From positions 1 to 36,183 of the forward strand of contig LQHI01000062.1 of the NCBI GenBank assembly GCA_001515185.1: DNA of 36,183 nt, in the 5' to 3' direction. Under the pieces are notes generated by a model. The model did not search any database. It worked only from the letters and a program-made list of their open reading frames with translations, and was not told the DNA's origin. A program made the position numbers and the translations under genes. Below, piece by piece: positions 10,522-36,183 of this stretch. Position 1 is the stretch's first letter. Each line of letters opens with the position of its first letter. This DNA is from Hadesarchaea archaeon DG-33 (GTDB lineage: Archaea > Hadarchaeota > Hadarchaeia > Hadarchaeales > Hadarchaeaceae).

Positions 10522-12489
10522 CTAACTGATGCCCAGCCTCTTCCACTCTTCATCTACCGTCCGCTGGATTCCCGCGATTTCCTCATCAGTGAGATGCCTA
10601 AATCTCCTCTGCATTTTCAAGTAATCTGCAACCGGCCTTCGCTTGGGTGGCTTAAAAGTGAGCTTAAACACGCCATTCTCGATCTCATAGAGATTCCACA
10701 TTCCTGTCAACACCGCAAGCTTGGCGATCTCGATCGTCTTGCTGGAATCAATCCTCCATCCTGGACCACACGGGCAATGGACGTGAATATAGGTTGGTCC
10801 TTCAATCGAGGCCGCTTTCTTTACTTTTTTGATGTAATCGAGTGGGTAGCCAACTGAAGCAGTCGCAACGTAAGGAGCACGATGGGCCGCGATTATTGCT
10901 GGCATATCTTTTTTCGGGAGATCCTCGCCTCGCTTCACCTTGCCTACGGGTGTTGTAGTTGTCCATGCGCTGTAGGGCGTTGCTCCACTTCGCTGAATCC
11001 CTGTATTGTGAACCACGATCCCGTCAGCGATAAAGTTGTGTTCACCTTCAACCCTCAAATCCAAAGTGGGTTCTTTCCCAACTAGTTTGATTTTTTCTAT
11101 TTTTTCCATCTCGAAATGTCCATTTTCTATCAAGAAGTTTTGATACTTGTACTGAGATGGATATTTCTTTACATTCCACTTCTTCCTTTTGCTGAAACAT
11201 ATGTACCCAAACGCCGTATCTTTTAGCAATCTTCTGTGCACACATTTTCTACCTTTTTTCCTTTCCTGCCAATGGATCTTCCCCACTCTGTATCCCATGG
11301 TTTGCAAAAGTAATCTCAAACGTTGAAGTAACTCATGGCTTGCAGAGACGTATCTAAAGCTGTTGCCGTTTTTATAACCATCCGAAAGCATGAGCCCTTC
11401 AATGAACGCCTCTTTTTCTTCTTTTGAGAGGGTAAAGATCCAAGGTGGTATTGTTTTATTTTTAGCTCCCGAACCAAAGCCTAAAAAGTGGATAAATCTC
11501 GCAAGATTAACCGAGTTCATATAAATGTACATATCATTGGTTCTCACTCCGTTACCAAAAAGAACATGTTGAAGTTTAACCAAACTTCTCCTTTCATTCG
11601 ATCCTTTAGGCAAGGCAAAGCCGACCTCGCCTCTCCCGGGCCTTACCCATCCATCTCCGACCCATATGCCAAGATATTTCATGAAAGCTGGAGATGAATG
11701 CTTTGGTAAATTAACTTCGTTTAGATGTGTTACTTTGCCTCCCTTTTGTATGGGATTGAATCTAAATTTGAAAGATTTTCCACCATTTAGATTTTTCAGT
11801 ACTACTATCCTATCTCTGACCTTGAGTTCACATAGAGTTTTCCAAACGAGTTTGTTTTTCCTCCCTCTACCGTTCCTTTTCAACACAAGGAAAGGATGGT
11901 TAGGCGTGGCACTTATGGTATGATGCAAGGTTTCAATTTCAAATACTTCCCGTGCTCCGTTGTCGAATATGCCTATGCATCTTTTCAAAACTGGTTGATG
12001 GGTTTTCAAGTCGAATGTATATATCTCGTCACCTTCTTTTACTTCTGTTATTTTCTTGAGACCATCTTTTGTCATTATGAGTGAAGAGGTGCTCAAACAA
12101 TTCATGTAAGCCTCGTTGTCAGTACAAATGTATAGCACATTGTGGTTGCGCTCGACCATCCCAGAAAGAGCTTGAAGCCCGATGTCTACCGTGCCTCCAT
12201 CGCCGCCTATCGCCACGACCTTGATACCACGTTTACCCAAGCTTTTCAAACCAGCTTCAACTCCAGAAGCGACTGCAGCGGCGTTCTCAAAAGCAACATG
12301 TATCCAAGGCACTCGCCAAGCGGTTTCTGGATATGGTGTGGTCACAACCTCCATGCAACCAGTTGGGGCGCAAACGATAGTGTTTTTACCAAGAGCTTTT
12401 AGTGCGTACCTCACCGCAAGGATGCTGCCACATCCTGGGCATGCGCGGTGTCCAGGCGCAAGCAATTCTTCTTCTGAAAATTGTTTCAT
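10522..12489 (-). CDS. porB: 2-oxoacid (pyruvate-type):ferredoxin oxidoreductase beta (TPP-binding) subunit, interrupted by an in-frame intein
   Basis: The exteins (130 + 160 aa) read GHRACPGCG...GGDGGTVDIGLQAL...YICTDNEAYMN | TGIQRSGATPY..., a contiguous PorB TPP motif once residues 131-495 are removed. The start overlaps the porA stop by ATGA. Confidence 0.9.
   Translation of the reverse strand: MKQFSEEELLAPGHRACPGCGSILAVRYALKALGKNTIVCAPTGCMEVVTTPYPETAWRVPWIHVAFENAAAVASGVEAGLKSLGKRGIKVVAIGGDGGTVDIGLQALSGMVERNHNVLYICTDNEAYMNCLSTSSLIMTKDGLKKITEVKEGDEIYTFDLKTHQPVLKRCIGIFDNGAREVFEIETLHHTISATPNHPFLVLKRNGRGRKNKLVWKTLCELKVRDRIVVLKNLNGGKSFKFRFNPIQKGGKVTHLNEVNLPKHSSPAFMKYLGIWVGDGWVRPGRGEVGFALPKGSNERRSLVKLQHVLFGNGVRTNDMYIYMNSVNLARFIHFLGFGSGAKNKTIPPWIFTLSKEEKEAFIEGLMLSDGYKNGNSFRYVSASHELLQRLRLLLQTMGYRVGKIHWQERKKGRKCVHRRLLKDTAFGYICFSKRKKWNVKKYPSQYKYQNFLIENGHFEMEKIEKIKLVGKEPTLDLRVEGEHNFIADGIVVHNTGIQRSGATPYSAWTTTTPVGKVKRGEDLPKKDMPAIIAAHRAPYVATASVGYPLDYIKKVKKAASIEGPTYIHVHCPCGPGWRIDSSKTIEIAKLAVLTGMWNLYEIENGVFKLTFKPPKRRPVADYLKMQRRFRHLTDEEIAGIQRTVDEEWKRLGIS
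11005..12099 (-). mobile_element. Class-1 intein (365 aa) with a LAGLIDADG homing-endonuclease domain, inserted in porB
   Basis: Block A is CLSTSSLIMTKDG (Cys1 codon at 12097-12099). Block B is ATPNHPF (TxxH). The LAGLIDADG motifs are YLGIWVGDGWV and FIEGLMLSDGY. Blocks F/G are LDLRVEGEHNFIADGIVVHN, followed by the +1 Thr (codon 11002-11004). Spot GC counts are about 30-33% inside and about 50-53% in the exteins. Confidence 0.88.
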
Positions 12490-13670
12490 GGTTTTAACCC
12501 CACCATAGTTTCTCTCAATCCTAGCCAGCGGACAGTTTTTTTGACTTCACCGATTTTTGCTGCTTCCATCGCTGCTTTGGTCGCTTCCCTAATTTGAAGT
12601 GATGAAACATCACGTCCCCCAAGACCACAGATGAAATTCAACAGAAGCGGAGACTTTCTAGAATTTACAAACGTCCCAGAAAGGTCCGAAAAAAGTGCTC
12701 CAGTGGAACCGGGCGAGAAATCTTTTTCGAGCACAGCTATGGCCTTGGCATGGGCAAGCGAGTCCACCAACTCTTTCTCTGGAAAAGGCCTGAATGCTCG
12801 CACCTTCACGAGTCCAACTCGCTCATCGTGGCCGCGGTACTCATCAATCACCTCTTTAACGCTGCCGCTCAACGAACCCATTGTGAGCAAAATTACGTCG
12901 GCATCATCACTTCGATAACACTCTATGAGGTCACTTTTCCTTCCGAATTGTCTACCGAATGCTTGTCCAACTTCAATTATTTTTTCCTTCGATTTGAGTA
13001 CAGCTTCTTGCAACATATATCTGAATTCCTCATAGTACTCTGGTACCCCAACTGCACCCATCGTGATTGGCTTCTCTGGATCGAGGAGATAAGGATACTT
13101 GTAGGGGGGCAGGAATTTATCGACTTCAGCCTGCTCAGGAATCTCCACTGGCTCGGCCGTGTGTGAGAGGATATATCCATCGAAACAGACCATCACTGGA
13201 AGCAAGGACTCTTCAGCGATGCGAAATGCCTGAATCGTCGAGTCGAGAACCTCTTGATTATTCTCGCAATAAAGCTGTATCCAACCGCAATCGCGCACAG
13301 CTACTGAGTCTTGTTGGTCGCACCAAATGCTGAGAGGTGCAGAGAGCGAGCGATTTGCGTTCGCCATGACAATAGGTAGCCGCATACCGGAAGCGACGAA
13401 CAATATCTCGCTCATGAGCATTAGTCCCTGAGAGGAAGTCGCAGTGAATGTCCTCGCCCCTACAGCCGCAGAACCTAAGCAAGCACTTAGTGCACTGTGT
13501 TCTGATTCCACTTTGATGTATTCTGCGTCCAGCTCACCATCAGCCACGAATTCGGCAAGTCTCTCTACGATAATCGTCTGCGGGGTTATTGGGTAAGCTG
13601 AGATGACCTTGACGCGCGCAAGCTTTGCAGCGATGGCAGCGGCTTCGTCGCCAGTGACAAGTTGCTTCAT
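12486..13670 (-). CDS. porA: 2-oxoacid (pyruvate-type):ferredoxin oxidoreductase alpha subunit
   Basis: The 394-aa sequence GDEAAAIAAKLARVKVISAYPITPQT...ESEHSALSACLGSAAVGARTFTATSSQGL is typical of PorA/VorA. It has 4-nt overlaps with the genes on both sides. Confidence 0.9.
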   Translation of the reverse strand: MKQLVTGDEAAAIAAKLARVKVISAYPITPQTIIVERLAEFVADGELDAEYIKVESEHSALSACLGSAAVGARTFTATSSQGLMLMSEILFVASGMRLPIVMANANRSLSAPLSIWCDQQDSVAVRDCGWIQLYCENNQEVLDSTIQAFRIAEESLLPVMVCFDGYILSHTAEPVEIPEQAEVDKFLPPYKYPYLLDPEKPITMGAVGVPEYYEEFRYMLQEAVLKSKEKIIEVGQAFGRQFGRKSDLIECYRSDDADVILLTMGSLSGSVKEVIDEYRGHDERVGLVKVRAFRPFPEKELVDSLAHAKAIAVLEKDFSPGSTGALFSDLSGTFVNSRKSPLLLNFICGLGGRDVSSLQIREATKAAMEAAKIGEVKKTVRWLGLRETMVGLKP

Positions 13671-25233: not shown

Positions 25234-25959
25234 TTGAAGATGCTAAGGATAGAGAATCTAACTGTAGAAATCGCGGGAAAACGGGTGCTCGGAGGAGTTA
25301 ACCTAGAGGTACCCAAAGGGGAGATCCACGTTTTGCTCGGGCCCAACGGATCCGGGAAGACCTCGCTGATAACGTCAATTTTGGGCTTCCCGAGTTGCCA
25401 CATTCTATCTGGCAATATTCGTTTCAATGGCACTGACATCACCACCATGCCAACGGATGAGCGCGTGAAGCTAGGCATCGGGGTGGCCTTCCAAAACCCC
25501 CCGCAAATAAGAGGTGTCAAACTGGGCGATGTTTTGCGACACCTCACCAAGGGAAAAATCGATGAAGTAAAGCTGGCAGGAACTACAAATATTCCCGTGG
25601 ATTTTTTCGGCAGAGATTTGAATTTGGGATTCTCCGGAGGCGAGCTCAAGCGGACGGAGATTCTACAGTTGCTCGCCCAACGACCAGATTTTGCGATATT
25701 CGATGAGCCCGACTCAGGAGTAGATGTTGAGAATCTAGAGGTCATAGGCAAGGCAATCAACGAATTCCTCAAGAACCGATCTGGCCTGTTGATAACCCAC
25801 CTCGGCCACATCCTGCGCTACTTAAAAGTGGACAAAGCCCATGTGATGTTTTATGGAACGATCGCCTGCTCTGGAAAGCCGACCAATATTATCAACCGAA
25901 TCATGAAAAAAGGCTACAAGTGGTGTGAGCGATGCCCAAAGGTAAAAAAACTACGCTGA
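25234..25959 (+). CDS. sufC: Fe-S cluster assembly ATPase SufC
   Basis: Walker A GPNGSGKTSL, ABC signature FSGGELKRTEILQLL, Walker B FDEPDSGVDV and H-loop ITH. Followed by sufB. The start may be ATG 25240. Confidence 0.9.
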   Translation: MKMLRIENLTVEIAGKRVLGGVNLEVPKGEIHVLLGPNGSGKTSLITSILGFPSCHILSGNIRFNGTDITTMPTDERVKLGIGVAFQNPPQIRGVKLGDVLRHLTKGKIDEVKLAGTTNIPVDFFGRDLNLGFSGGELKRTEILQLLAQRPDFAIFDEPDSGVDVENLEVIGKAINEFLKNRSGLLITHLGHILRYLKVDKAHVMFYGTIACSGKPTNIINRIMKKGYKWCERCPKVKKLR

Positions 25960-27155
25960 AGGCGATCGAAAAGCCAGCGGCGTTTGGGCCTGACTTAGAT
26001 GTGGAGGCTTTCAAAAGAGAAACTTCCTATTGGCCCGCATGTAAGATTTCGACGCTGCCCCGAGATATAGCCCAAAGAGCATTGAGCGTTGGCATTAGTA
26101 CTGAGGAAAAGGAAAGAGCGGGCACATATTTTCAAATAGATCACTCTGCGATTCTTCAAACAATTCGAGAAACTTTCAGCGGAAAAGCTGAGATAATGAG
26201 CACCAAAAAAGCCCTCAAAAAATACCGCTGGGCCAAGGAGTACTGGTGGGAAATTGTTGACGCCAATACCGACAAATTCACCGCTTTAGCCAAGCTAAAG
26301 TGGGACCAAGGCTATTTCATCCGAGTGTTGGAAGGCCAAAAAATCACTATCCCCCTGCAAGCGTGCCTTTTCATCTCGAAAGACAATTTCAACCAAAACG
26401 TTCACAACTTGATAATAGCAGAACCCAACTCGGAAGCTCAGATAATAACTGGCTGCACGGTCCACCCAAACGTTCAAAGCGGTCTGCATGTGGGCATTTC
26501 CGAATTTTACGTGCAGAAAAACGCGAAGCTCACTTTCACCATGATTCACAACTGGGCCCAAAATTTCAATGTTCGACCTCGAACCGCGGCCCTCGTGGAC
26601 GATGATGCAACATTTGTGAGCAATTACATGTGTATGAAACCGGTGAAAAGCCTTCAAATGTACCCTGTTGCTTACTGCAAGGGAGCTAACTCGAGAGTCA
26701 GATTCAATACAATCCTACACGGGAACCAAAATTCCCATTTAGATGTGGGCTCGAAAGTGGTCCTCCAAGGCAAAGGGAGCAGGGGGGAAATCATCACGCG
26801 GGCGATAGCCTCGGACAACGCACAGATAAATGCCCGTGGGCTATTGGTTGGGGAACATGAGGACAGCAAGGCGCATCTTGAATGCAGGGGACTTTTGCTC
26901 TCTGATGAAGCCTACATTCACGCGATTCCGGAGTTGGTAGGGAACGTGAAGGGGACCGAGCTTTCACATGAGGCTGCTGTAGGAAAGATAGCGGAAGAGC
27001 AGATTCAGTACTTGATGGCGAGGGGTTTCTCGCAGACTGAGGCCGAATCGCTGATTATCCGAGGGTTCATGGATATTAACATCTTCGGACTTCCAGATGC
27101 CCTAAAAAGGGATGTCAAGCGGATGATAGATGCAACCTTCGGTGGAGCTTTGTAA
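25932..27155 (+). CDS. sufB: Fe-S cluster assembly scaffold SufB/SufD family protein
   Basis: The C-terminal beta-helix region HEAAVGKIAEEQIQYLMARGFSQTEAESLIIRGF is the SufBD signature. Overlaps the sufC 3' end by 28 nt. Confidence 0.85.
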   Translation: MPKGKKTTLKAIEKPAAFGPDLDVEAFKRETSYWPACKISTLPRDIAQRALSVGISTEEKERAGTYFQIDHSAILQTIRETFSGKAEIMSTKKALKKYRWAKEYWWEIVDANTDKFTALAKLKWDQGYFIRVLEGQKITIPLQACLFISKDNFNQNVHNLIIAEPNSEAQIITGCTVHPNVQSGLHVGISEFYVQKNAKLTFTMIHNWAQNFNVRPRTAALVDDDATFVSNYMCMKPVKSLQMYPVAYCKGANSRVRFNTILHGNQNSHLDVGSKVVLQGKGSRGEIITRAIASDNAQINARGLLVGEHEDSKAHLECRGLLLSDEAYIHAIPELVGNVKGTELSHEAAVGKIAEEQIQYLMARGFSQTEAESLIIRGFMDINIFGLPDALKRDVKRMIDATFGGAL

Positions 27156-27198: not shown

Positions 27199-27663
27199 GT
27201 GACCTTGAAGGTGGATAACATGGTCGGATTTGAACCAAAAATCATCGTTTTTCTTTGCAATTTCTGCTCCTACGCTGCAGCTGACCTCGCTGGAACGAGT
27301 CGCATGCGTTATCCGCCTAGCGTCTACATCATCAGGCTGATGTGCACTGGGCGGCTAGATCCCGTTCACATTCTAGAAACTTTTAAACGAGGTGCGGATG
27401 GGGTGTTGGTCGCTGGATGCCACTTCGGAGACTGTCATTTCATCTCTGGAAACTACAAGGCTCAGCGGAGAGTTGCCCTGCTCAAGCGAATACTAGAGCA
27501 GTTAGGGGTAGAACCGGGGAGGCTCAAGTTCGAAACAATGTCAGCTGGAGAGGCTGAACGGTTCGTTAAAACTGTTACGGGATTTGTTGATGAGATTACA
27601 AAGTTGGGGCCTTGTAAAGTATCGACCCAAGTTTCTGAAAAAGTTTCATCACCAAGCCACTGA
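27199..27663 (+). CDS. mvhD: MvhD/FlpD-type hydrogenase iron-sulfur (delta) subunit
   Basis: EPKIIVFLCNFCSYAAADLAG...RLMCTGRLDP...GADGVLVAGCHFGDCHF is the MvhD signature. The likely start is ATG 27220, preceded by GGTGGA. Confidence 0.85.
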   Translation: MTLKVDNMVGFEPKIIVFLCNFCSYAAADLAGTSRMRYPPSVYIIRLMCTGRLDPVHILETFKRGADGVLVAGCHFGDCHFISGNYKAQRRVALLKRILEQLGVEPGRLKFETMSAGEAERFVKTVTGFVDEITKLGPCKVSTQVSEKVSSPSH

Positions 27664-27717
27664 TATTGAGTTATGAAAAAGCAATTCGAAGTTCAAAAGT
27701 ACGATGCATTATTTCTT

Positions 27718-28215
27718 TTAGGGGAGAACTCTCGACAAAAAACTTGATAAGCGCTCAACGGTTCCTTCCAATTCTTTTGTAAAACCTTCTCCAAAACTAG
27801 TGTCCTTTGGTTGCACGGCGAGCAAAGCGACCTTAGCACCAGTTGCCTCCGTTAGGAATTCTCGAAATATCTGATGAGTTAGAGCGTGAGTCAATACCGC
27901 TGGCCACGAGATCCGATTTAGTTCAATCAACCTTGAAGAACCAGGTTCTAGGCCTAGTTGAGCCGCGTTGACAAGTAGTATGTGGGTTGGCTTGAAGTGA
28001 ATAATCGGTTCTAAAAAATTCTCAGGGGACATTTCACACTCTATTAAATGAACCGATCGCGAAACTTTCCCTCGTAGTTTTTTCACGATTCCAACCCCTA
28101 TGAAATCATCTTTTCGAATCGAGCTTCCAATACCTGCGATGACAACCCTTCGGGCATCTAGAAGCCACTTCCTGAGTTTCTCGTTGAAATCATTTTGGAT
28201 CGCATATTTTTCCAT
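27718..28215 (-). CDS. [NiFe]-hydrogenase maturation endopeptidase (HycI/HybD/FrhD family)
   Basis: VVIAGIGSSIRKDDFIGVGIV aligns with GxGNxxxxD(D/E)GxG. PTHILLVNAAQLGLEPGS aligns with HycI PTRLLIVDATDMGLNPGE. LTHQ supplies the His ligand. Lies directly downstream of mvhA. Confidence 0.8.
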   Translation of the reverse strand: MEKYAIQNDFNEKLRKWLLDARRVVIAGIGSSIRKDDFIGVGIVKKLRGKVSRSVHLIECEMSPENFLEPIIHFKPTHILLVNAAQLGLEPGSSRLIELNRISWPAVLTHALTHQIFREFLTEATGAKVALLAVQPKDTSFGEGFTKELEGTVERLSSFLSRVLP

Positions 28216-28268
28216 TTGACTTCCCCGTTGGGATAGTTCGCTAACTTATGCGACACAAAAAGATATCC

Positions 28269-29756
28269 CTAAAAGTGTTTAAAGCCAAGAGGTTCTCTCA
28301 CAACGGTTTTTATTAAACTCCGACTATCATCGTATATTTTTATTTCAAGGGGCAAATCGCCTATGTGGCAGTGAGAGGCGCATGCTATACATGGATCATA
28401 AGCTCTCAAAGCCATCTCCACCATGTTTAGTAGCCCCTCGCTTACTTCTTTACCATGGATGAGCCCCTTCGCTGCATCCCTTACGGACATGCAGATGGAT
28501 GGATTGTTGCTGGTTGTAGGGACTATCAGATTTACCTTTTCGGTCAGGCCCTCTTCGTTAAGATTGTAATGGTGGATTAATGTGCCCCTCGCCGCTTCGA
28601 CTATTCCGATTCCTTCTCCCGGGGCACCTGGCTCGTTTCGAATTTCCTTGCTCGTTATCTCTTCGTCTTGACTGAGATCTAGGCATCTTTCGGCCGCATA
28701 AAGTATTTCTATCAGCCTAGCCCAGTGGAACGCGAGAGTTGAGTGAACGGGCTTCCCGCCTAGGGTTTCGTACATCCTCTCATACTCTTGCTGGGCTAGG
28801 GGGGTTGCCATACCATCCGCGGCGTTCAGTCTGGCCAAGGGACCAACTCTGTAAACCCCACTGCTAGGTCCATCCCTCAAGCCTTTCCATCCGATTTTTT
28901 TGAGATAAGGCAGTTTTACGTAACTCCATTCCTCAACGTGCTCCTCGATGATGTCCAAGTACTCGGATGGATCAAACTTCACGAACTCTTGGCCCCCGGG
29001 ATTAACCACACGTATTTTGCCATCGTAAAAGTTGACCTTGTTGTTTGGGTCTACTAGCCCCATGTAATAGGTCTTTAAAGTGTAAGCGTCACTCATAATC
29101 AGATCAACATATTTCTCATTTTTCAATACAACATCGTCGAATAACTTCAAGCTAAACTTGGCAAATTCAATGTAGGACTTCGCTATCTTTTCGATTTCTT
29201 TCCTTTCTTCCTCCGTCAACGGCTTGGACATGCCCCCCGGAAGCCCGCAAACCGGGTGGGTCGCCTTTCCACCGATTATCTCGGTGATTTTTTGTCCGTA
29301 AGCCCGATGCTTTATCACTTCCTTGGCGACGTTTAAGCCGACCTTTTTGATCATACCGAAAATGTTTCTTTCCTCAGGGGGGGCATCGGGCCCCACAACG
29401 AAGTCCGGCGCAGCTAGGAAGTAGAAGTGGAGGATGTGATCGTACATGAAGTAGCCGCTGTACATGAGCTCCCGAAGTTTTTTCGCAGCTGGAGGGGGAT
29501 CCACACAAAACGCCGTATCCAAAGCTTTCGTAGAAGCGAGATGATGGGCAACTGGACATACCCCGCAAATTCTTGAGAGCAGTTGTGGGAGATCTTCAGC
29601 TTTCCTTCCCTCACAGAATCTTTCAAAACCCCTGAGTTCAGGGATCTGTAAATAGGCGTTTTTCACTTCCCCTTTCTCATCTTGAAATATCACTATTTTT
29701 GCATGACCCTCAAGCCTCGTAACGGGCTCTATGCTTATTGTCTTAAATCCGCTCAT
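28269..29756 (-). CDS. mvhA: [NiFe]-hydrogenase large subunit, F420-non-reducing (Mvh/Vhu, group 3c-like)
   Basis: N-terminal RLEGH and RICGVCPVAH (RxCGxCxxxH). C-terminal DPCIACASH (DPCxxCxxH), followed by a 33-aa tail presumably removed by the adjacent protease. Confidence 0.9.
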   Translation of the reverse strand: MSGFKTISIEPVTRLEGHAKIVIFQDEKGEVKNAYLQIPELRGFERFCEGRKAEDLPQLLSRICGVCPVAHHLASTKALDTAFCVDPPPAAKKLRELMYSGYFMYDHILHFYFLAAPDFVVGPDAPPEERNIFGMIKKVGLNVAKEVIKHRAYGQKITEIIGGKATHPVCGLPGGMSKPLTEEERKEIEKIAKSYIEFAKFSLKLFDDVVLKNEKYVDLIMSDAYTLKTYYMGLVDPNNKVNFYDGKIRVVNPGGQEFVKFDPSEYLDIIEEHVEEWSYVKLPYLKKIGWKGLRDGPSSGVYRVGPLARLNAADGMATPLAQQEYERMYETLGGKPVHSTLAFHWARLIEILYAAERCLDLSQDEEITSKEIRNEPGAPGEGIGIVEAARGTLIHHYNLNEEGLTEKVNLIVPTTSNNPSICMSVRDAAKGLIHGKEVSEGLLNMVEMALRAYDPCIACASHCHIGDLPLEIKIYDDSRSLIKTVVREPLGFKHF

Positions 29757-30745
29757 TTCCGAATCCTCCTTCGGATGAGGGCTGCCGGCAGCGAGTACCA
29801 GTAAAAAGTCCCTAGGGGATCTTTGATTTGGTTGATCAATTTTTCGGCATCATATGATTCTCCTTTTTCCTCATCCAATCCGAGGATCGAAGAGAGAGCA
29901 CTTATCATGGACGCTCCCTGCTCGATTTCATTGGGACATGGACCCCCGCATCCTGTACAAGGCATATTCGCGTTGATGCATCGTGCCTCGCACCCTCCAC
30001 GGGTTGCAGGCCCCATGCATATTATCCCTTGCTCCAAAAAGCATTTTTCCGGATCCGGCGTGATTTCGTGTACCCGATATAACTTGGAGATACCCTTCTC
30101 TTTTTTTTCCCTCGGGCATTCATCGCAAACCGATTTCTCGGGAGCTAACACCGAACCTTTCGCGGGCAACTCATTTTTGGCTATGGCTTCCACGGCTTTC
30201 ACTATCAAGTTTGGGTGCGGAGGACAACCGGGGATGTAGTAGTCCACCTCCACGGTTTGATCTAGCGTCCTCACAGTATCATAAAACTCGGGCAGGGTTA
30301 GTTCCCCGCATTCGACTTTAACAGCAGTTTTAGGGGTTGTGATATCAGGATTTTTTGTTGATGGAGTTCGAATGTATACCTTCTCGAAAATCTCTTTTTT
30401 GTTCGAAATGTTCGCAAGACCTGGAACGCCACCTAGGTGAGCGCAGGCGCCAAACGCTATCAAAAGCTTTGACTTCCGCCTCAGAAGTTTGGCCATGTGT
30501 TCTTGCTCTTCAGTCCTGACCGAACCATTAAAGAAACAGACGTCTATGCTCTTGTCCGGCATCGCGTCTACGTCCTTGTACTTGACGTCCATAGCAACAG
30601 GCCAAAAGACCACCTCAGCGATGGTAACCACATCCAGAATCTTCTCGTTTATATCGAGAACCGCGATCTCACAGCCTCCACAACTGCCAGCCCAGTAGAA
30701 GGCAAATTTCAACTTTTTTGGTTCCTCACTCCTTATTTTTTTCAA
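29753..30745 (-). CDS. mvhG: [NiFe]-hydrogenase small subunit (MvhG-like)
   Basis: WAGSCGGCEIAVLD, GACAHLGGVPG and PGCPP, plus distal cluster cysteines (CEARCINANMPCTGCGGPC). TTG start with GAGGTG 5 nt upstream. 4-nt overlap with mvhA. Confidence 0.9.
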   Translation of the reverse strand: MKKIRSEEPKKLKFAFYWAGSCGGCEIAVLDINEKILDVVTIAEVVFWPVAMDVKYKDVDAMPDKSIDVCFFNGSVRTEEQEHMAKLLRRKSKLLIAFGACAHLGGVPGLANISNKKEIFEKVYIRTPSTKNPDITTPKTAVKVECGELTLPEFYDTVRTLDQTVEVDYYIPGCPPHPNLIVKAVEAIAKNELPAKGSVLAPEKSVCDECPREKKEKGISKLYRVHEITPDPEKCFLEQGIICMGPATRGGCEARCINANMPCTGCGGPCPNEIEQGASMISALSSILGLDEEKGESYDAEKLINQIKDPLGTFYWYSLPAALIRRRIRK

Positions 30746-30843: not shown

Positions 30844-32802
30844 ATGGGAGATAGAAACGTGAAAACAGGCGTGTACATTTGTCATTGTGGGTTAAATATA
30901 GCTGCTACCGTTGACGTTGAAGAAGTGGTGAAACATGCTAAGTCTTTGCCAAATGTGGTGATCGCTAGGGATTATAAGTACATGTGCTCTGACCCAGGAC
31001 AGGAGTTAATCAAGAAGGATATAGAGGAAGCCGGACTCAATCGTGTAGTCGTGGCGAGCTGTTCTCCAAGGATGCACGAACCCACATTCAGAAAGGTCGT
31101 GGAAGATAAGAAACTTAACCCCTACTGCTTCGAGATGGCGAATATAAGAGAGCAGTGTTCTTGGGTCCATGAAGACAAAGAAAAAGCCACTGAAAAGGCC
31201 AAGAAATTGATTGCAGGCGCTGTGGCAAGAGCTACCGAACTTCAGCCGCTAGAGAGGAGAGAAGTAGATGTAATACCGAAAGCTTTGGTGATTGGAGGAG
31301 GAATTGCCGGGATTCAAGCGGCATTGGAGATAGCGGAAAATGGGATATACACATACCTCGTGGAGCGCTCACCCTCCATCGGGGGAAGGATGGCCCAACT
31401 CGACAAAACCTTTCCAACCCTAGATTGCTCTGCGTGCATCCTTACTCCCAAGATGGTGGACGTGAGCAGACATCCAAACATAGAACTCTTGAGTTATTCA
31501 GAGGTAGAGAGCGTTGAAGGCTACATCGGAAATTTCAAGGTGAAGGTTAAGAAAAAGCCAAGATATATCGACGAGGAAAAGTGCATCGGTTGTGGAGAAT
31601 GTGCTAAAGCTTGCTTGCTGAAGGGAAAGATTCCAAATGAATTCGATCTGAGTTTAGGAAAGAGGGGGGCAGCCTACATACCGTTTCCGCAGGCTGTGCC
31701 TTTGAAATACCTGATAGATCCTAAGCGTTGCCTATACCTTACGAGGGGAGTATGCGGGAAAAAGCCTGCTTGTAAAGCAGCGTGCCTCCGTGACGCTATC
31801 GATTTTGAACAACAAGAAAAGTCCATTGAACTCGAAGTAGGCGCGATAGTGGTCGCCACGGGCTTTGACTTGTTTGATCCCTCTCAGCTGCCTGAGTACG
31901 GGTACGGGAAGTACCCGGAGGTGATTACGGGGCTCGAGTTCGAGAGACTTAGCTCGGCTTCCGGTCCGACCAACGGAAAGATCGAAGTAAACGGGAAGGA
32001 GCCCAAGCGGGTGGCCTTCATCTCCTGCGTGGGGAGCAGGAAGAAAGAGACGAATCCCTATTGCTCACGGGTCTGCTGCATGTACACGGTCAAGCATGCT
32101 CACCTCGTTAAGGAGAAAATTCCGGATGCTGAAGTGACGATATACTACACGGATGTCAGGGCTTTTGGTAAGGGGTACGAGGAGTTCTACGATCGGGTCA
32201 AAGCTGAGGGGGTTAAATACAAGCGAAGGGAGCTGGACGACGAGATAAAGGTGAGCAAGAAAAGTGACAGACTCGTTGTGGACGCGAAGCCTCACGAGCC
32301 CGAAGAAGTAGACCTCGTGGTGCTGGCGAATGCAATAGTCCCGAGATCTGGAGTCTTAGAACTCGCCAGAACTTTGAACATTACCCGCGGTCCGGACGGC
32401 TTTTTCCTAGAAGCCCACCCAAAGCTTAGGCCAGTCGATACTTTTAGCGACGGTATTTTCCTTGCCGGCTGTGCCCAATCGCCCAAAGATATCCCGGATA
32501 CGGTAGCACAAGCAAGCGGCGCAGGCGCTAAAGCCTCTATACCTCTGGCAGCGGGAAAAGTCGCGATAGAGCCGATAGTAGCAATTGTGGACGAGGATCT
32601 ATGCAGCGGTTGTAGAGTGTGTGAACACCTTTGCGAGTTTAATGCCTTTGAATATGATAGAGAAAAACGCTTGGTGAGACTCAACGAAGTGCTTTGCAAG
32701 GGTTGCGGGGTTTGTGTAGCCGCTTGTCCGTCTAAGGCTATCTCTATGAAACATTACACGGACGTTCAACTTTCCGCTCAATTGGCAGGCCTGATATCAT
32801 GA
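30844..32802 (+). CDS. hdrA: Heterodisulfide reductase subunit A (canonical-length HdrA, 652 aa)
   Basis: N-terminal YICHCGLNIA...ASCSPRMHE, FAD site VIGGGIAGIQAALEIA, DKTFPTLDCSACILTPKM, an inserted ferredoxin domain (CIGCGECAKAC ... KRCLYLTRGVCGKKPACKAAC) and a C-terminal 2x[4Fe-4S] domain (CSGCRVCEHLCE, CKGCGVCVAACPS). Confidence 0.9.
   Translation: MGDRNVKTGVYICHCGLNIAATVDVEEVVKHAKSLPNVVIARDYKYMCSDPGQELIKKDIEEAGLNRVVVASCSPRMHEPTFRKVVEDKKLNPYCFEMANIREQCSWVHEDKEKATEKAKKLIAGAVARATELQPLERREVDVIPKALVIGGGIAGIQAALEIAENGIYTYLVERSPSIGGRMAQLDKTFPTLDCSACILTPKMVDVSRHPNIELLSYSEVESVEGYIGNFKVKVKKKPRYIDEEKCIGCGECAKACLLKGKIPNEFDLSLGKRGAAYIPFPQAVPLKYLIDPKRCLYLTRGVCGKKPACKAACLRDAIDFEQQEKSIELEVGAIVVATGFDLFDPSQLPEYGYGKYPEVITGLEFERLSSASGPTNGKIEVNGKEPKRVAFISCVGSRKKETNPYCSRVCCMYTVKHAHLVKEKIPDAEVTIYYTDVRAFGKGYEEFYDRVKAEGVKYKRRELDDEIKVSKKSDRLVVDAKPHEPEEVDLVVLANAIVPRSGVLELARTLNITRGPDGFFLEAHPKLRPVDTFSDGIFLAGCAQSPKDIPDTVAQASGAGAKASIPLAAGKVAIEPIVAIVDEDLCSGCRVCEHLCEFNAFEYDREKRLVRLNEVLCKGCGVCVAACPSKAISMKHYTDVQLSAQLAGLIS
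31354..31460 (+). repeat. Near-identical segment shared with 33294-33400 (hdrA1 versus hdrA2)
   Basis: By-eye alignment at a constant 1940-nt offset shows about 107 nt with 2 mismatches (at 31401 c/t and 31446 t/c), including synonymous positions. Confidence 0.8.
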
Positions 32803-35800
32803 AAATCGGCGTCTATATCTGTCATTGCGGGACCAACATTGCGAAGACCGTGGATGTCGAAAAAGTCGCTGGTACCGTAGGAAAGCATCCAAGAGTGAAA
32901 GTCTCTAAACACTACGAATACATGTGCTCAGAACCCGGCCAGCAATTAATCAAAGACGATATTCGCAGGGAGAAGTTAGACAGAATAGTAGTGGCATCTT
33001 GTTCGCCCAGAATGCATGAGCCTACTTTTCGCAACGTCGTCGAAGAAGCGGGGTTGAACCCTTACTGTTTCGAGATGGTGAATATAAGAGAACAATGCTC
33101 GTGGGTTCATGAAGAAAAAGAAGAAGCTACGAGAAAAGCGCTGGAACTCATCCTAGCAGGTGTAAGCAGAGCTGTAGAGCTCGAAAGCTTGGAAAGAAAA
33201 GAAATTTCCGTGATACCCCAGGCCGCCGTAATAGGCGGAGGCATAGCCGGGATGCAAGCTGCCCTCGACATCGCGGACAGGGGCTTCAAAGTATACCTCG
33301 TGGAGCGCTCACCCTCCATCGGGGGAAGGATGGCCCAACTTGACAAAACCTTTCCAACCCTAGATTGCTCTGCGTGCATCCTTACCCCCAAGATGGTAGA
33401 TGTAAAATGGCATCCAAACATAGAGCTCCTGACTTATTCAGAGGTCGAGGGCGTCGAGGGTTATGTAGGTAACTTTAGAGTAAAAGTAAAGAAAAAGCCT
33501 AGATATGTGGACCTAGAAAAGTGTACTGGATGTGGAGAATGCACCGACGTATGCTCTGTGGAACTGCCAAACGAGTTTGATTTTGGGCTCAGCAGCAGAA
33601 AAGCGATTTACATGCCATTTCCACAAGCAGTCCCGCCTAAATATACTATCGATAAACGGGGATTGCAGCCATGTAGAGACGCGTGCCCTGCAGGTGTCGG
33701 CGCACCTGGTTACGTAATGCTCGCCAGCCGCGGTAAATTCTATGAAGCACTTCAGGTTATAAAAGAGAAACTTCCGTTTCCATCTATATGCGGTAGGGTT
33801 TGTCACAGACCTTGCGAAAAGGCATGTACAAGAAAGGATATAGATGAGCCACTAGGTATAGCACATATTAAACGTTTTGTCGGAGATTTAGAGCTCAAGA
33901 GCCCTGCTGCAGAATTTCCGCCTATAAAAACGAGGGCAGAAAATGTGGCTATAGTCGGAGGAGGACCTGCTGGCTTAACTGCTGCTCATGACCTTGCTAT
34001 GAAAGGATACCATATAACAATATATGAAAGTGCGCCCGTGCTTGGCGGTATGATGCGGTTTGGTATTCCTACTTTTAGACTGCCGAAAGAAATTCTTGAA
34101 AGAGAGATATCTGACATTCTTGCGCTAAGAGTTAAAGTGCATCTGAACACGACGATAGGCAAAAATTTGACTATAAAGGGCTTATTCGACCGTGGTTATA
34201 AAGCGATTTTTTTAGCTGTGGGCGCTCAAAAAGGTAGAAAAATGGATGTACCTGGCGAAGAACTTGAAGGTGTACTCCAAGCTACTGAGTTCTTGAAAGA
34301 GCTGAATTTAGGTGAGACTCCTAAACTAGGCGATAAGGTAATTGTCGTTGGTGGAGGTAATGCAGCATTAGACACAGCACGTTCTGCTTTGAGGTTAGGT
34401 GCTAAGGAAGTTATCATAATGTATCGCAGATCTCGTGTAGAAATGCCTGCAGAACCTGAATGGGAAATTGACGAGACAAAGCGCGAAGGCGTGAAATTCG
34501 TCTATCTTACCACACCAACAAAAGTCATAGGTGAAAACGAGCATATCAAAGCAATTGAATGCGTCAAGATGAAATTGACAGAGCCTGATGAAACTGGTAG
34601 AAGAAAAGTTAGACCTATCCCTGGCTCTGAGTTTATGATGGAAGCGGATAGCCTGATATTAGCTATCGGGCAGGAAGTGGATTTGAGTTTCTTAACCAAG
34701 GATATCAATTTAGAATGTAATCCTTGGAGGACTGTCAAGGTTGACCCTGTATCGTTAGCAACCAATATAGAAGGCGTTTTTTGTGGCGGCGATGCTGTGT
34801 TAGGTGCTGGGACTGTTATAGAAGCAATTGCTGCTGGAAAAGAAGCTGCAATTTCCATTGATAGATACATCAATGGGAAAAACCTGAAAGAAGGCCGTGG
34901 GATAAAACCAAAAATCGCTGAGGTGTCATTAGAAGGTGTTAAAAAGGAACGCAAAGTGCCCATGCGATATCTGCCGATTGAGGAGAGGAAAAACAACTTT
35001 CGAGAAGTCGAGTTGGGTTATACTGAAGAAGAAGTGATTAAAGAAGCAAAACGGTGTTTGCAGTGTGGCGGATGTTCCGAGTGTCTTGAATGTGAAAAAG
35101 CATGTGAGGCCAAAGCCATTGTTCATAATCAAAAAGAGGAATCAATCGAACTCGAGGTTGGCGCTATAGTCGTGGCCACAGGCTTCGATCAATTCGATTC
35201 TTCCAAGCTCCCCGAGTATGGCTACGGGAAATATTCGGAAGTCATCACGGGGCTTGAGTTCGAGAGACTTAGCTCGGCTTCCGGCCCGACCAACGGAAAA
35301 ATCGAAATAAACGGGAAGGAGCCGAAGCGGGTGGCATTCATCTCCTGTGTTGGGAGCAGGAAGAAAGAGACGAATCCCTATTGCTCACGGGTCTGCTGCA
35401 TGTACACGGCCAAGCAGGCTCACTTAGTCAGGGAAAAGCTTCCCGAAGCCGAAGTGACTGTATACTACACGGATGCCAGAACTTTCGGCAAGGGGTACGA
35501 GGAGTTCTACGATCGGGTCAAGGCCGAGGGAGTGAAGTACAAGCGCAGGGAGCTGGACGACGAGATAATAGTCAGCAAAAAGAGCGATAGACTCGTGGTC
35601 GAAGCAAAACCCTACAAGCCCGAGGAAGTGGATCTCGTGGTGTTAGCCAGCGCTATAGTCCCCAGCTCTGGATCCTCTGAGCTAGCCAGGATCTTGAACA
35701 TCAGCCAAGGCCCTGATGGCTTCTTCCTCGAGGCCCACCCAAAGCTGAGGCCGGTGAATACCTTTAGCGACGGAATCTTCCTAGCCGGCTGTGCCCAATC

Positions 35801-36146
35801 GCCCAAGGACATCCCCGACACGGTAGCACAAGCATCAGCGAGCGCAGCTGAGGTTTGCTCTTTGTTAACAAAAGGCACGGTGGTGGCCGAAGGAATTGTA
35901 GCCTCGGTCGATGAGAATTTGTGCGCTGGTTGCGGTTTCTGTGCCGAGGTTTGTCCCATAGATGCAATAGAACTCGAGACGGTAGAGAGGAAAGGGTCAA
36001 TATCAAAAATAGCCAAGGTAAATGAAGCGCTATGTAAAGGTTGTGGCATATGCTCCGCAGCCTGTCTTTCGGGAGCCATCCAACAGCGCCACTTTGAAGA
36101 CAAACAAGTATTGCCCTTGATCGATGCGTTGGGTGAGCAAAGTTGA
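32799..36146 (+). CDS. hdrA: HdrA paralog (1115 aa) with a nested GltD/NfnB-like NAD(P)H-dependent FAD oxidoreductase module in its inserted-ferredoxin domain
   Basis: Residues 1-287 and 753-1115 are collinear with and highly similar to the upstream HdrA. Residues about 288-752 carry GltD/NfnB signatures: PCRDACPAG...LPFPSICGRVCHRPCEKAC, VAIVGGGPAGLTAAHDL, VIVVGGGNAALDTARSALRLGAKEVIIMYRRS, FCGGDAV.GAGTVIEAIAAGKEAA and RKNNFREVELGYTEEEVIKEAKRCLQC. ATGA overlap with hdrA1. Confidence 0.88.
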   Translation: MKIGVYICHCGTNIAKTVDVEKVAGTVGKHPRVKVSKHYEYMCSEPGQQLIKDDIRREKLDRIVVASCSPRMHEPTFRNVVEEAGLNPYCFEMVNIREQCSWVHEEKEEATRKALELILAGVSRAVELESLERKEISVIPQAAVIGGGIAGMQAALDIADRGFKVYLVERSPSIGGRMAQLDKTFPTLDCSACILTPKMVDVKWHPNIELLTYSEVEGVEGYVGNFRVKVKKKPRYVDLEKCTGCGECTDVCSVELPNEFDFGLSSRKAIYMPFPQAVPPKYTIDKRGLQPCRDACPAGVGAPGYVMLASRGKFYEALQVIKEKLPFPSICGRVCHRPCEKACTRKDIDEPLGIAHIKRFVGDLELKSPAAEFPPIKTRAENVAIVGGGPAGLTAAHDLAMKGYHITIYESAPVLGGMMRFGIPTFRLPKEILEREISDILALRVKVHLNTTIGKNLTIKGLFDRGYKAIFLAVGAQKGRKMDVPGEELEGVLQATEFLKELNLGETPKLGDKVIVVGGGNAALDTARSALRLGAKEVIIMYRRSRVEMPAEPEWEIDETKREGVKFVYLTTPTKVIGENEHIKAIECVKMKLTEPDETGRRKVRPIPGSEFMMEADSLILAIGQEVDLSFLTKDINLECNPWRTVKVDPVSLATNIEGVFCGGDAVLGAGTVIEAIAAGKEAAISIDRYINGKNLKEGRGIKPKIAEVSLEGVKKERKVPMRYLPIEERKNNFREVELGYTEEEVIKEAKRCLQCGGCSECLECEKACEAKAIVHNQKEESIELEVGAIVVATGFDQFDSSKLPEYGYGKYSEVITGLEFERLSSASGPTNGKIEINGKEPKRVAFISCVGSRKKETNPYCSRVCCMYTAKQAHLVREKLPEAEVTVYYTDARTFGKGYEEFYDRVKAEGVKYKRRELDDEIIVSKKSDRLVVEAKPYKPEEVDLVVLASAIVPSSGSSELARILNISQGPDGFFLEAHPKLRPVNTFSDGIFLAGCAQSPKDIPDTVAQASASAAEVCSLLTKGTVVAEGIVASVDENLCAGCGFCAEVCPIDAIELETVERKGSISKIAKVNEALCKGCGICSAACLSGAIQQRHFEDKQVLPLIDALGEQS
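33294..33400 (+). repeat. Partner copy of 31354-31460
   Basis: Same alignment as above. Flanking paralogous sequence is clearly more diverged. Confidence 0.8.
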
Positions 36147-36183
36147 GCTGGGAACCTCGTATAGTGGGCTTCTTATGCAATTG
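36143..36183 (+). CDS. mvhD: Second MvhD-like hydrogenase iron-sulfur subunit, first 13 codons only (runs off the window)
   Basis: A TTG overlapping the hdrA2 stop (TTGA) opens M-SWEPRIVGFLCN(W), which parallels FEPKIIVFLCNFC of the MvhD at 27199. Very short, so tentative. Confidence 0.45.
   Translation, partial: MSWEPRIVGFLCN

Follow-up and report, generated by a model that had tools for sequence, protein, structure and literature searches.

A circularly permuted GltD/NfnB-like NAD(P)H cassette nested in an HdrL-type HdrA of Hadesarchaea archaeon DG-33

The stretch of DNA considered here, 36,183 nucleotides of contig LQHI01000062.1 from Hadesarchaea archaeon DG-33 (hereafter the window), carries at its end a tandem pair of genes, hdrA1 and hdrA2, whose products both show HdrA-type flavin adenine dinucleotide (FAD) and ferredoxin domains in Pfam searches. 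What HdrA2 has in addition to HdrA1 is a nested combination of Fer4_20 and Pyr_redox_2 domains, corresponding to a GltD/NfnB-like NAD(P)H:FAD:2x[4Fe-4S] module contained in an insert of about 470 amino acids (residues ~288-758). Fusion of HdrA with a GltD-like module is itself already published, for HdrL and for HdrA9-11 of ANME-1; the present account concerns the order in which the module is assembled and the point at which it is spliced. Window positions 33651-35078 translate to HdrA2 residues 285-760 (DKRGLQPC...RCLQCGGCS), in agreement with the residue numbers and window coordinates of an earlier note made on this DNA from its sequence alone. The features of the gene pair are as follows.

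30844..32802, + strand: hdrA1, an HdrA paralog of 652 residues without the insert, its motif 2 expanded to Cx7Cx5Cx3C (KRCLYLTRGVCGKKPACKAAC)
32799..36146, + strand: hdrA2, an HdrL-type HdrA of 1115 residues with a nested, permuted GltD/NfnB-like cassette
33522..33554, + strand: HdrA inserted-ferredoxin motif 1, CTGCGECTDVC (C242, C245, C248, C252), invariant in a 45-protein alignment and aligning with solved HdrA
33648..33689, + strand: N junction, IDKRGLQPCRDACP, native HdrA up to TIDKRG and cassette from PC292xxxC296P
33666..33896, + strand: cassette Fe-S "head", residues 290-366 (Fer4_20 profile 30-110), holding C335, C339, E340 and C343
33870-33872, + strand: codon of the putative ligand Lys358 within the head, by equivalence with the NfnA ligand of 9BOV
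33942..34838, + strand: cassette FAD and NAD(P)H Rossmann domains (Pyr_redox_2), residues 382-680
34872..34943, + strand: linker, residues 692-715, running from where the canonical GltD fold ends to the transplanted N-terminal segment, with a lower predicted local distance difference test score (pLDDT, 79-86)
34944..35072, + strand: cassette "tail", residues 716-758, equivalent to T. maritima NfnB residues 2-44 and ending RC753LQC756GG
35073..35105, + strand: HdrA inserted-ferredoxin motif 2, C759SEC762LEC765EKAC769, intact, invariant and aligning with CIECMLCDEVC of 8rvv_A/8rvu_a

The insert is circularly permuted relative to NfnB and GltD, far beyond what chance could produce, as the earlier note had proposed. 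In a comparison with all PDB sequences, residues 290-695 align with residues 45-462 of T. maritima NfnB (4ylf_B), and the tail (residues 716-758, KERKVPMRYLPIEERKNNFREVELGYTEEEVIKEAKRCLQCGG), searched alone, aligns with residues 2-44 of the same protein (E 1.9e-8), with further matches to the N-termini of P. furiosus Xfn and NfnL and a weaker one to A. brasilense GltD (E 0.049). The Fer4_20 profile is split in like manner, its positions 30-110 falling on residues 290-366 (68.6 bits) and its positions 1-39 on residues 730-772 (27.6 bits), so that the tail by itself exceeds the curated Pfam cut-off of 25.8 bits. The break lies between NfnB residues 44 and 46 and, again as anticipated, within the first Cx2Cx4Cx3CP cluster motif, between its second and third cysteines (C-x2-C / x4-C-x3-CP): the PC292xxxC296P with which the cassette starts represents C3 and C4 of the canonical motif, and the RC753LQC756 that closes the tail represents C1 and C2. 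The contiguous Fer4_20 region of canonical NfnB and GltD, N-terminal to the FAD and NADPH domains, is not found in HdrA2. The permuted order is nowhere mentioned in the publications on HdrL, on HdrA9-11 or on the three solved structures of Bfu-type NfnA/StnC, and we found nothing relevant in the literature on circular permutation of glutamate synthase or NfnB.

The cassette is flanked by TIDKRG on one side and by the first cysteine of HdrA motif 2 on the other, and leaves that motif intact. With the insert removed in silico, the spliced HdrA2 aligns with 8rvv_A 226-387 (E 3.6e-58), so that C759, C762, C765 and C769 coincide with the inserted ferredoxin domain's canonical Cx2Cx2Cx3C, where the M. 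wolfeii sequence (5odc_A) reads CIECGLCAKVC. This domain retains two complete four-cysteine motifs (C242-C252 and C759-C769), with all eight cysteines invariant, and the six cysteines at the C junction comprise C753 and C756 of the module plus the four of HdrA motif 2. A merger of an NfnB cluster with the second ferredoxin cluster of HdrA, as envisaged in the earlier note, thus finds no support, motif 2 being complete and C753 and C756 being extra cysteines of the module.

Among 45 HdrL-type proteins, C242, C245, C248, C252, C292, C296, C335, C339, C343, K358, R752, C753, C756, C759, C762, C765 and C769 are invariant. Across 163 permuted modules, C292, C296, C335, C339, C343 and C753 are present in every case and C756 in 161, and position 358 is occupied by Lys in 150, Glu in 7 and His in 5. 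In this set, a Lys ligand goes hand in hand with the permuted order. In DPD, electrons pass from FAD via nFeS2 to nFeS1, with a Gln/Glu ligand at the proximal cluster (PMC8097209). The proximal cluster of C. saccharolyticus NfnA (9BOV) is ligated by Cys108, Cys147, Cys151 and Lys170 (PMC11829005), which in alignment with the PDB sequence correspond to C296, C335, C339 and K358 of HdrA2; K358 corresponds likewise to K170 of 8OH5, and a Lys ligand is also described for StnC and Tsi NfnA. Canonical NfnB and GltS have Glu as the non-cysteine ligand of this cluster and DPD has Gln; the Glu/Gln fourth ligand of canonical NfnB/GltD/DPD is absent from HdrA2, in which Lys358 stands opposite the T. maritima NfnB Glu (igrlErf) in the alignment. 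By these correspondences the proximal cluster of HdrA2 would be held by C296, C335, C339 and Lys358, and the distal cluster probably by C292 and C343 of the head together with C753 and C756 of the tail. That the two ends of the insert both supply cysteines to a single cluster had been surmised in the earlier note, and homology and invariance favor that view; since the distal cluster would take its cysteines from both ends, the insert termini are predicted to be adjacent. The split cluster would, on the other hand, be not the proximal one, as had been supposed, but the distal.

An AlphaFold2 (AF2) model of HdrA2, computed from 45 sequences, has a mean pLDDT of 86.7, with both junctions at 90-96, and its HdrA parts match 8rvu_A, 5odc_A and 7bkb_A with Foldseek template-modelling (TM) scores of 0.80-0.90 (normalised to target). 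The modelled insert overlays 9bov_A over 492 columns at a root-mean-square deviation (rmsd) of 2.9 Å; with canonical NfnB/NfnL only ~420-430 columns are matched (rmsd 2.1-2.6 Å), as would be expected if the tail is non-sequential. Residues 102-565 of StnC have been reported to superpose on P. furiosus NfnL at 1.2 Å and to hold two clusters (PMC10482914).

A KR-x-LQ echo at the two junctions, to which the earlier note attached significance, is literally present in HdrA2 as KRGLQPC (residues 286-292) and KRCLQC (residues 751-756), and the two sites share AAACGG...TTGCAG in DNA. It nevertheless carries no meaning: among 140 HdrA-type homologues in which both junctions are recognisable, KR.LQ is found at the N junction in five and KRCLQC at the tail in two, and the 98%-identical ortholog is the only one to have both halves. 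The consensus in these homologues is K-[R/K/H/I/Q]-G-[L/M/I/V/K/T]-[H/Q/P/S]-P-C at the N junction and [R/K/E/L/N/Q]-R-C-L-[N/D/S/A/V/Q]-C at the tail; the L, Q and second K of the echo are variable positions, while the K of IDK is native to HdrA and the RCL of the tail to GltD. The echo is a lineage-specific coincidence. Nor does the KRCL of HdrA1 indicate recombination at a shared Fe-S motif, as was also suggested, for alignment of HdrA1 with 5odc_A 229-390 identifies KRCLYL as containing the native first cysteine of the expanded motif 2 (Cx7Cx5Cx3C, HdrA1 residues 291-310, window 31714-31773), a form widespread among HdrA paralogs that lack the insert, with examples in Bacillota, Syntrophoarchaeum and Thermoplasmatales. 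An hdrA with this expanded motif also lies directly upstream of an HdrL-type gene in three further loci (L003, L004 and L005), implying that the tandem of expanded-motif hdrA and hdrL is conserved. As a separate observation, hdrA1 and hdrA2 form a mosaic in which 31894-32268 and 35214-35588, and also 31384-31458, show 83-96% DNA identity with most third codon positions identical, the remainder being 55-75% identical; this pattern resembles gene conversion between the two genes.

The permuted cassette is by no means confined to HdrA2. Among PDB entries, the insert has its three strongest matches in NfnA/StnC proteins of the Bfu type (9BOV, 9N5U and 8OH5): query positions 6-473 are collinear, tail included, with 9bov_A 102-567 and 8oh5_C 102-566, and the alignment with 9n5u_A consists of two collinear stretches. 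The head alone scores 410, 394 and 349 bits against these permuted structures versus 332 and 309 against canonical NfnB, and two insertions carried by NfnB/NfnL are missing both from HdrA2 and from Bfu NfnA/StnC; scores and shared indels together group the insert with the permuted type. A profile-free scan of a library of 1.84 billion representatives with the insert gave 27,467 matches at E <= 1e-3. We inspected the 150 best 50%-identity representatives, a sample biased towards relatives of the query: every one is in the permuted order, and 146 are collinear from end to end, tail included; four end before reaching it. The module starts anywhere between residues 3 and 646 of these hosts, which are 489-1532 residues long, and the junction motifs PCxxxCP(A) ... 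RCLxC are kept in 163 of 163 permuted modules.

By Pfam matches and inspection of the junctions, the hosts include HdrA-type, NuoG-like, NuoF-like, HdrA-MvhD and SdhB-like Fer2_3 proteins, as well as Fer4_11, polyferredoxin, dihydroorotate-dehydrogenase (DHO_dh), POR/TPP 2-oxoacid:ferredoxin oxidoreductase and old-yellow-enzyme-like N-termini. In NuoG-like hosts the module lies within an Hx3C / Cx5C motif (SNHxxDCxxPCxxxCPA ... RCLxCGCxxxxxC), and in NuoF-like hosts it is C-terminal, the protein ending just after RCLRC. One genuine free-standing permuted gene was found (P0149, 489 residues, between ribosomal and mazG genes). Two other candidates were rejected, P0161 being cut by a contig end and P0188 (494 residues) being a mis-called piece of a larger NuoF fusion; the open reading frame (ORF) concerned (L085 2327-5485) encodes a thioredoxin-like, NuoF-like and permuted GltD fusion of 1052 residues, with a NuoE-like gene on one side and Fer2_4, Glu_synthase and glutamine synthetase genes on the other. 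A regular-expression search of 270 proteins for a contiguous canonical RCLxC...C...CP motif with a second motif found none, and no duplication intermediate was seen. Since one and the same cassette, with identical end points, occurs in unrelated hosts, as a free-standing gene and in solved structures, it was not made in HdrA2, and very probably existed, already permuted, before it was spliced into that protein.

HdrA2 belongs to a sizeable family, with more than 100 collinear homologues of 1100-1700 residues that carry the insert. In species-representative genomes, insert-bearing HdrA is found in Hadarchaeota, Bathyarchaeia, Thermoplasmata, Thorarchaeota and Syntrophoarchaeum, and also in Dehalococcoidia, Desulfobacterales, Aminicenantes, Acetothermia and others, the best genome match (91% identity, full length) being in a Candidatus Hadarchaeota metagenome-assembled genome (L005, CAZETV010000001.1). 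Fer4 and FAD_oxidored domains and collinearity with solved HdrA, comprising an N-terminal Cys domain, a thioredoxin-reductase-like FAD domain and a 2x[4Fe-4S] ferredoxin domain at the C-terminus, identify HdrA2 as an HdrA, and the insert within the inserted ferredoxin domain (~288-758), with mvhD downstream, assigns it to the HdrL/HdrA9-11 type. HdrL of Desulfobacterium autotrophicum was described as an HdrA with a GltD/NfnB-like module (Strittmatter et al. 2009, PMC2702500), and HdrA9/10/11 of ANME-1 as having a 500-residue NfnB-like insertion by which the inserted ferredoxin domain is interrupted (Chadwick et al. 2022, PMC9012536). In a neighbour-joining (NJ) tree of the 163 modules the Bfu-type clade is clean (33 of 34), and the HdrA-type modules are not resolved as one clade (F1 0.60). 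It is very probable that HdrA2 is an HdrL-type HdrA bearing a pre-existing, permuted NAD(P)H/FAD/two-[4Fe-4S] cassette between TIDKRG and HdrA motif 2.

The neighbourhood of the hdrA pair described here covers window positions 27199-30745 and 36164-36183 and, in addition, L001 13366-16548; the first of these holds a divergent [NiFe] hydrogenase that flanks the pair.

29753-30745: [NiFe] hydrogenase small subunit
28269-29756: [NiFe] hydrogenase large subunit
27718-28215: HycI
27199-27663: MvhD

Downstream, the order is hdrA1-hdrA2-mvhD, the last (the FlpD gene) starting 18 nucleotides after hdrA2, followed beyond the end of the window by an FrhB/FdhB-like gene and by genes encoding one Fer4_22 and one PyrK/NfnA-like protein. 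A 66%-identical relative has these genes around it as well, an arrangement suggestive of a multi-substrate complex of the Hdr type, in which HdrA1 and HdrA2 would form an asymmetric pair. Elsewhere in the window, a HypF hydrogenase maturation gene (8164-10497, - strand) and a SufBD Fe-S assembly gene (25932-27155, + strand) fit a neighbourhood rich in hydrogenase and Fe-S functions. At 10522-12489 (- strand) a TPP_enzyme_C protein, resembling the beta subunit of 2-oxoacid:ferredoxin oxidoreductase, is split by an intein with a LAGLIDADG homing-endonuclease domain; it adjoins a POR_N/PFOR_II gene (12486-13670, - strand).

In the mechanism that we propose, both chain ends of the cassette would meet at the distal cluster, at a sequence distance of three residues from the cluster that HdrA binds through C759, C762 and C765; held by both ends, the distal cluster would lie beside the inserted-ferredoxin clusters of HdrA. 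NADPH would reduce the cassette FAD, and electrons could then move singly across the proximal cluster, with its Lys ligand, to the distal cluster, from there to the two inserted-ferredoxin clusters and finally to HdrA's own flavin, with operation in reverse also possible. The cassette would most likely be a simple NADPH port, as in Bfu NfnA/StnC, and not a second site of bifurcation: in Bfu-type NfnA/StnC, mutagenesis and structure indicate that the FAD is non-bifurcating, and as the Lys ligand is a signature of that type, a port is the likelier role.

Other accounts of the order and origin of the module have been weighed. That there is no true permutation, the RKNNF...RCLQC segment being native HdrA or a generic ferredoxin-like stretch, might be argued from the ferredoxin motif that follows it directly, but can scarcely be entertained; insert-less solved HdrA has no counterpart of the tail, running from TIDKEH/TIDKDY straight into CIEC..C...C, which answers the question, raised in the earlier note, whether the tail is native HdrA, and the segment finds its match in the NfnB N-terminus and passes the Fer4_20 threshold unaided. 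It is also highly improbable that the permutation arose inside HdrA2, whether through recombination at KRCL or through duplication and truncation of nfnB, with junction cysteines fusing the NfnB and HdrA clusters. The two junction echoes, with their common DNA sequence, and the KRCL at the homologous motif of HdrA1 would suit such an event; yet the echo is joint in just one of 140 homologues, the KRC of HdrA1 is a native motif-2 cysteine, and the C junction has its two plus four cysteines with HdrA motif 2 intact. Moreover, the insert is common to archaea and bacteria and hence ancient, so that microhomology in the DNA cannot be left over from such an event. Both routes offered in the earlier note accordingly find no support, recombination at a shared motif in view of the identical end points in NuoG-like, NuoF-like and other hosts and in solved structures, and duplication with truncation in view of the lack of a contiguous canonical motif or an intermediate in the 270 proteins. 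A less remote, though still unlikely, alternative holds that the permuted order is ancestral, with the cassette placed between host Fe-S motifs, and that canonical NfnB, GltD and DPD are the derived permutation. The abundance and diversity of the permuted order (all 150 top representatives, of the 27,467 matches) and the extra insertions of canonical forms speak for it, but the canonical order is common to three deeply divergent families (GltD, DPD and NfnB), and the abundance comes from a sample biased towards relatives of the query.

As to function, a second bifurcation site was raised for ANME-1 HdrA9-11 by Chadwick et al. (PMC9012536), and in HdrA2 the cassette would serve as such a site with the PyrK/NfnA-like protein docking as NfnA does on NfnB, where the [2Fe-2S] cluster of the PyrK-like NfnA partner touches the bifurcating FAD. 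In favor of this, the PyrK-like gene (FAD_binding_6, NAD_binding_1, DHODB_Fe-S_bind) is kept in the operon of two distant relatives, and Arg427, the equivalent of NfnB R201 and StnC R239, is conserved. We regard it as distinctly unlikely, however, in view of the invariant Lys358, shared with Bfu NfnA/StnC, where the FAD is non-bifurcating, in place of the Glu of NfnB and GltS or the Gln of DPD; besides, the PyrK-like gene forms a pair with that of a Fer4_22 protein, resembling in this the beta and gamma subunits of NADP-linked hydrogenases, and its product may belong to the adjacent [NiFe] hydrogenase. Several points nonetheless weigh against our own reading of HdrA2 as an HdrL-type protein with a pre-existing cassette acting as a port. 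The PyrK/NfnA-like gene, three genes downstream both here and in the 66%-identical relative, leaves room for an NfnAB-like bifurcating arrangement, and with HdrA-type modules not resolved as one clade in the NJ tree, the cassette may have entered HdrA a single time or repeatedly. The putative distal ligands, further, rest on homology, on invariance and on the ligand set of DPD nFeS1, the StnC/NfnA publications listing no distal-cluster ligands. They match the way in which nFeS1 of DPD is built, as reportedly described by Dobritzsch et al. in 2001.

What the permutation means for the spread of the module can be put forward tentatively, with somewhat less than even confidence: it may be the innovation that made a mobile "plug-in NAD(P)H port" possible. 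Transfer of the first helix and CxxC of GltD to the C-terminus would bring both chain ends onto the distal [4Fe-4S] cluster, and a cassette with its ends there could be spliced beside or inside any host Fe-S motif and be wired automatically. If true, this would explain its spread to HdrA, NuoG-/NuoF-like, old-yellow-enzyme-like, dihydroorotate-dehydrogenase-like, 2-oxoacid-oxidoreductase and polyferredoxin hosts, and the promiscuity of the module may have a simple structural reason in the end points that its copies have in common on the distal cluster. We found no statement of this principle in the literature that we searched, although three structures show it. The insert of HdrL and HdrA9-11 is to be viewed as a permuted, Lys-ligated cassette and not as a copy of bifurcating NfnB; the cassette FAD is non-bifurcating in the sole enzymes tested, which speaks against the "two bifurcation sites" that have been proposed and points to a plain port through which NADPH would enter or leave an Hdr complex. 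Such a port would bear on how NADPH is linked to ferredoxin and heterodisulfide chemistry in uncultured anaerobes, including Hadarchaeota, Bathyarchaeia, ANME-1, Dehalococcoidia and Desulfobacterales. For annotation, Pfam-style calls show just a truncated Fer4_20 in all these proteins. A permuted, insertion-ready NADPH cassette whose termini are predicted to meet on the distal cluster may be worth stating in print, though it is no surprise on the scale of a new system.

Among known systems, HdrL and HdrA9-11 resemble HdrA2 in having an NAD(P)H module of ~470-500 residues in the inserted ferredoxin domain, mvhD directly after the gene and, often, an insert-less hdrA in tandem. HdrA2 differs from these published proteins in its occurrence in Hadarchaeota and in adjoining [NiFe] hydrogenase, FrhB-like and PyrK-like genes; the publications leave the permuted order, the Lys ligand and the exact splice point all unmentioned. 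Canonical NfnB/NfnL (4YLF, 5JCA), GltD and the N-terminal half of DPD share fold and cofactor set with the cassette, at 43% identity, but the HdrA2 cassette ends with what are the first 44 residues of NfnB, Glu (Gln in DPD) stands where the cassette has Lys, and two extra insertions are present; NfnB/NfnL, in addition, is a free-standing subunit with an NfnA partner, whereas the HdrA2 cassette is nested. The closest counterparts, by both sequence and structure, are Bfu NfnA/StnC (9BOV, 9N5U, 8OH5), which have the same permuted order, the same end points (PCxxxCPA ... RCLxC), the Lys on the proximal cluster and the same indel pattern. Their modules form a clade of their own (33 of 34), and their host is NuoG/HydA-like, with a [2Fe-2S] domain at the N-terminus and an Fdh-like domain at the C-terminus; HdrA2 has neither a Fer2_4 nor a molybdopterin match in Pfam and is not a Bfu subunit. 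In that host the cassette is set inside the Hx3C / Cx5C motif, whereas in HdrA2 it stands just before a ferredoxin motif.

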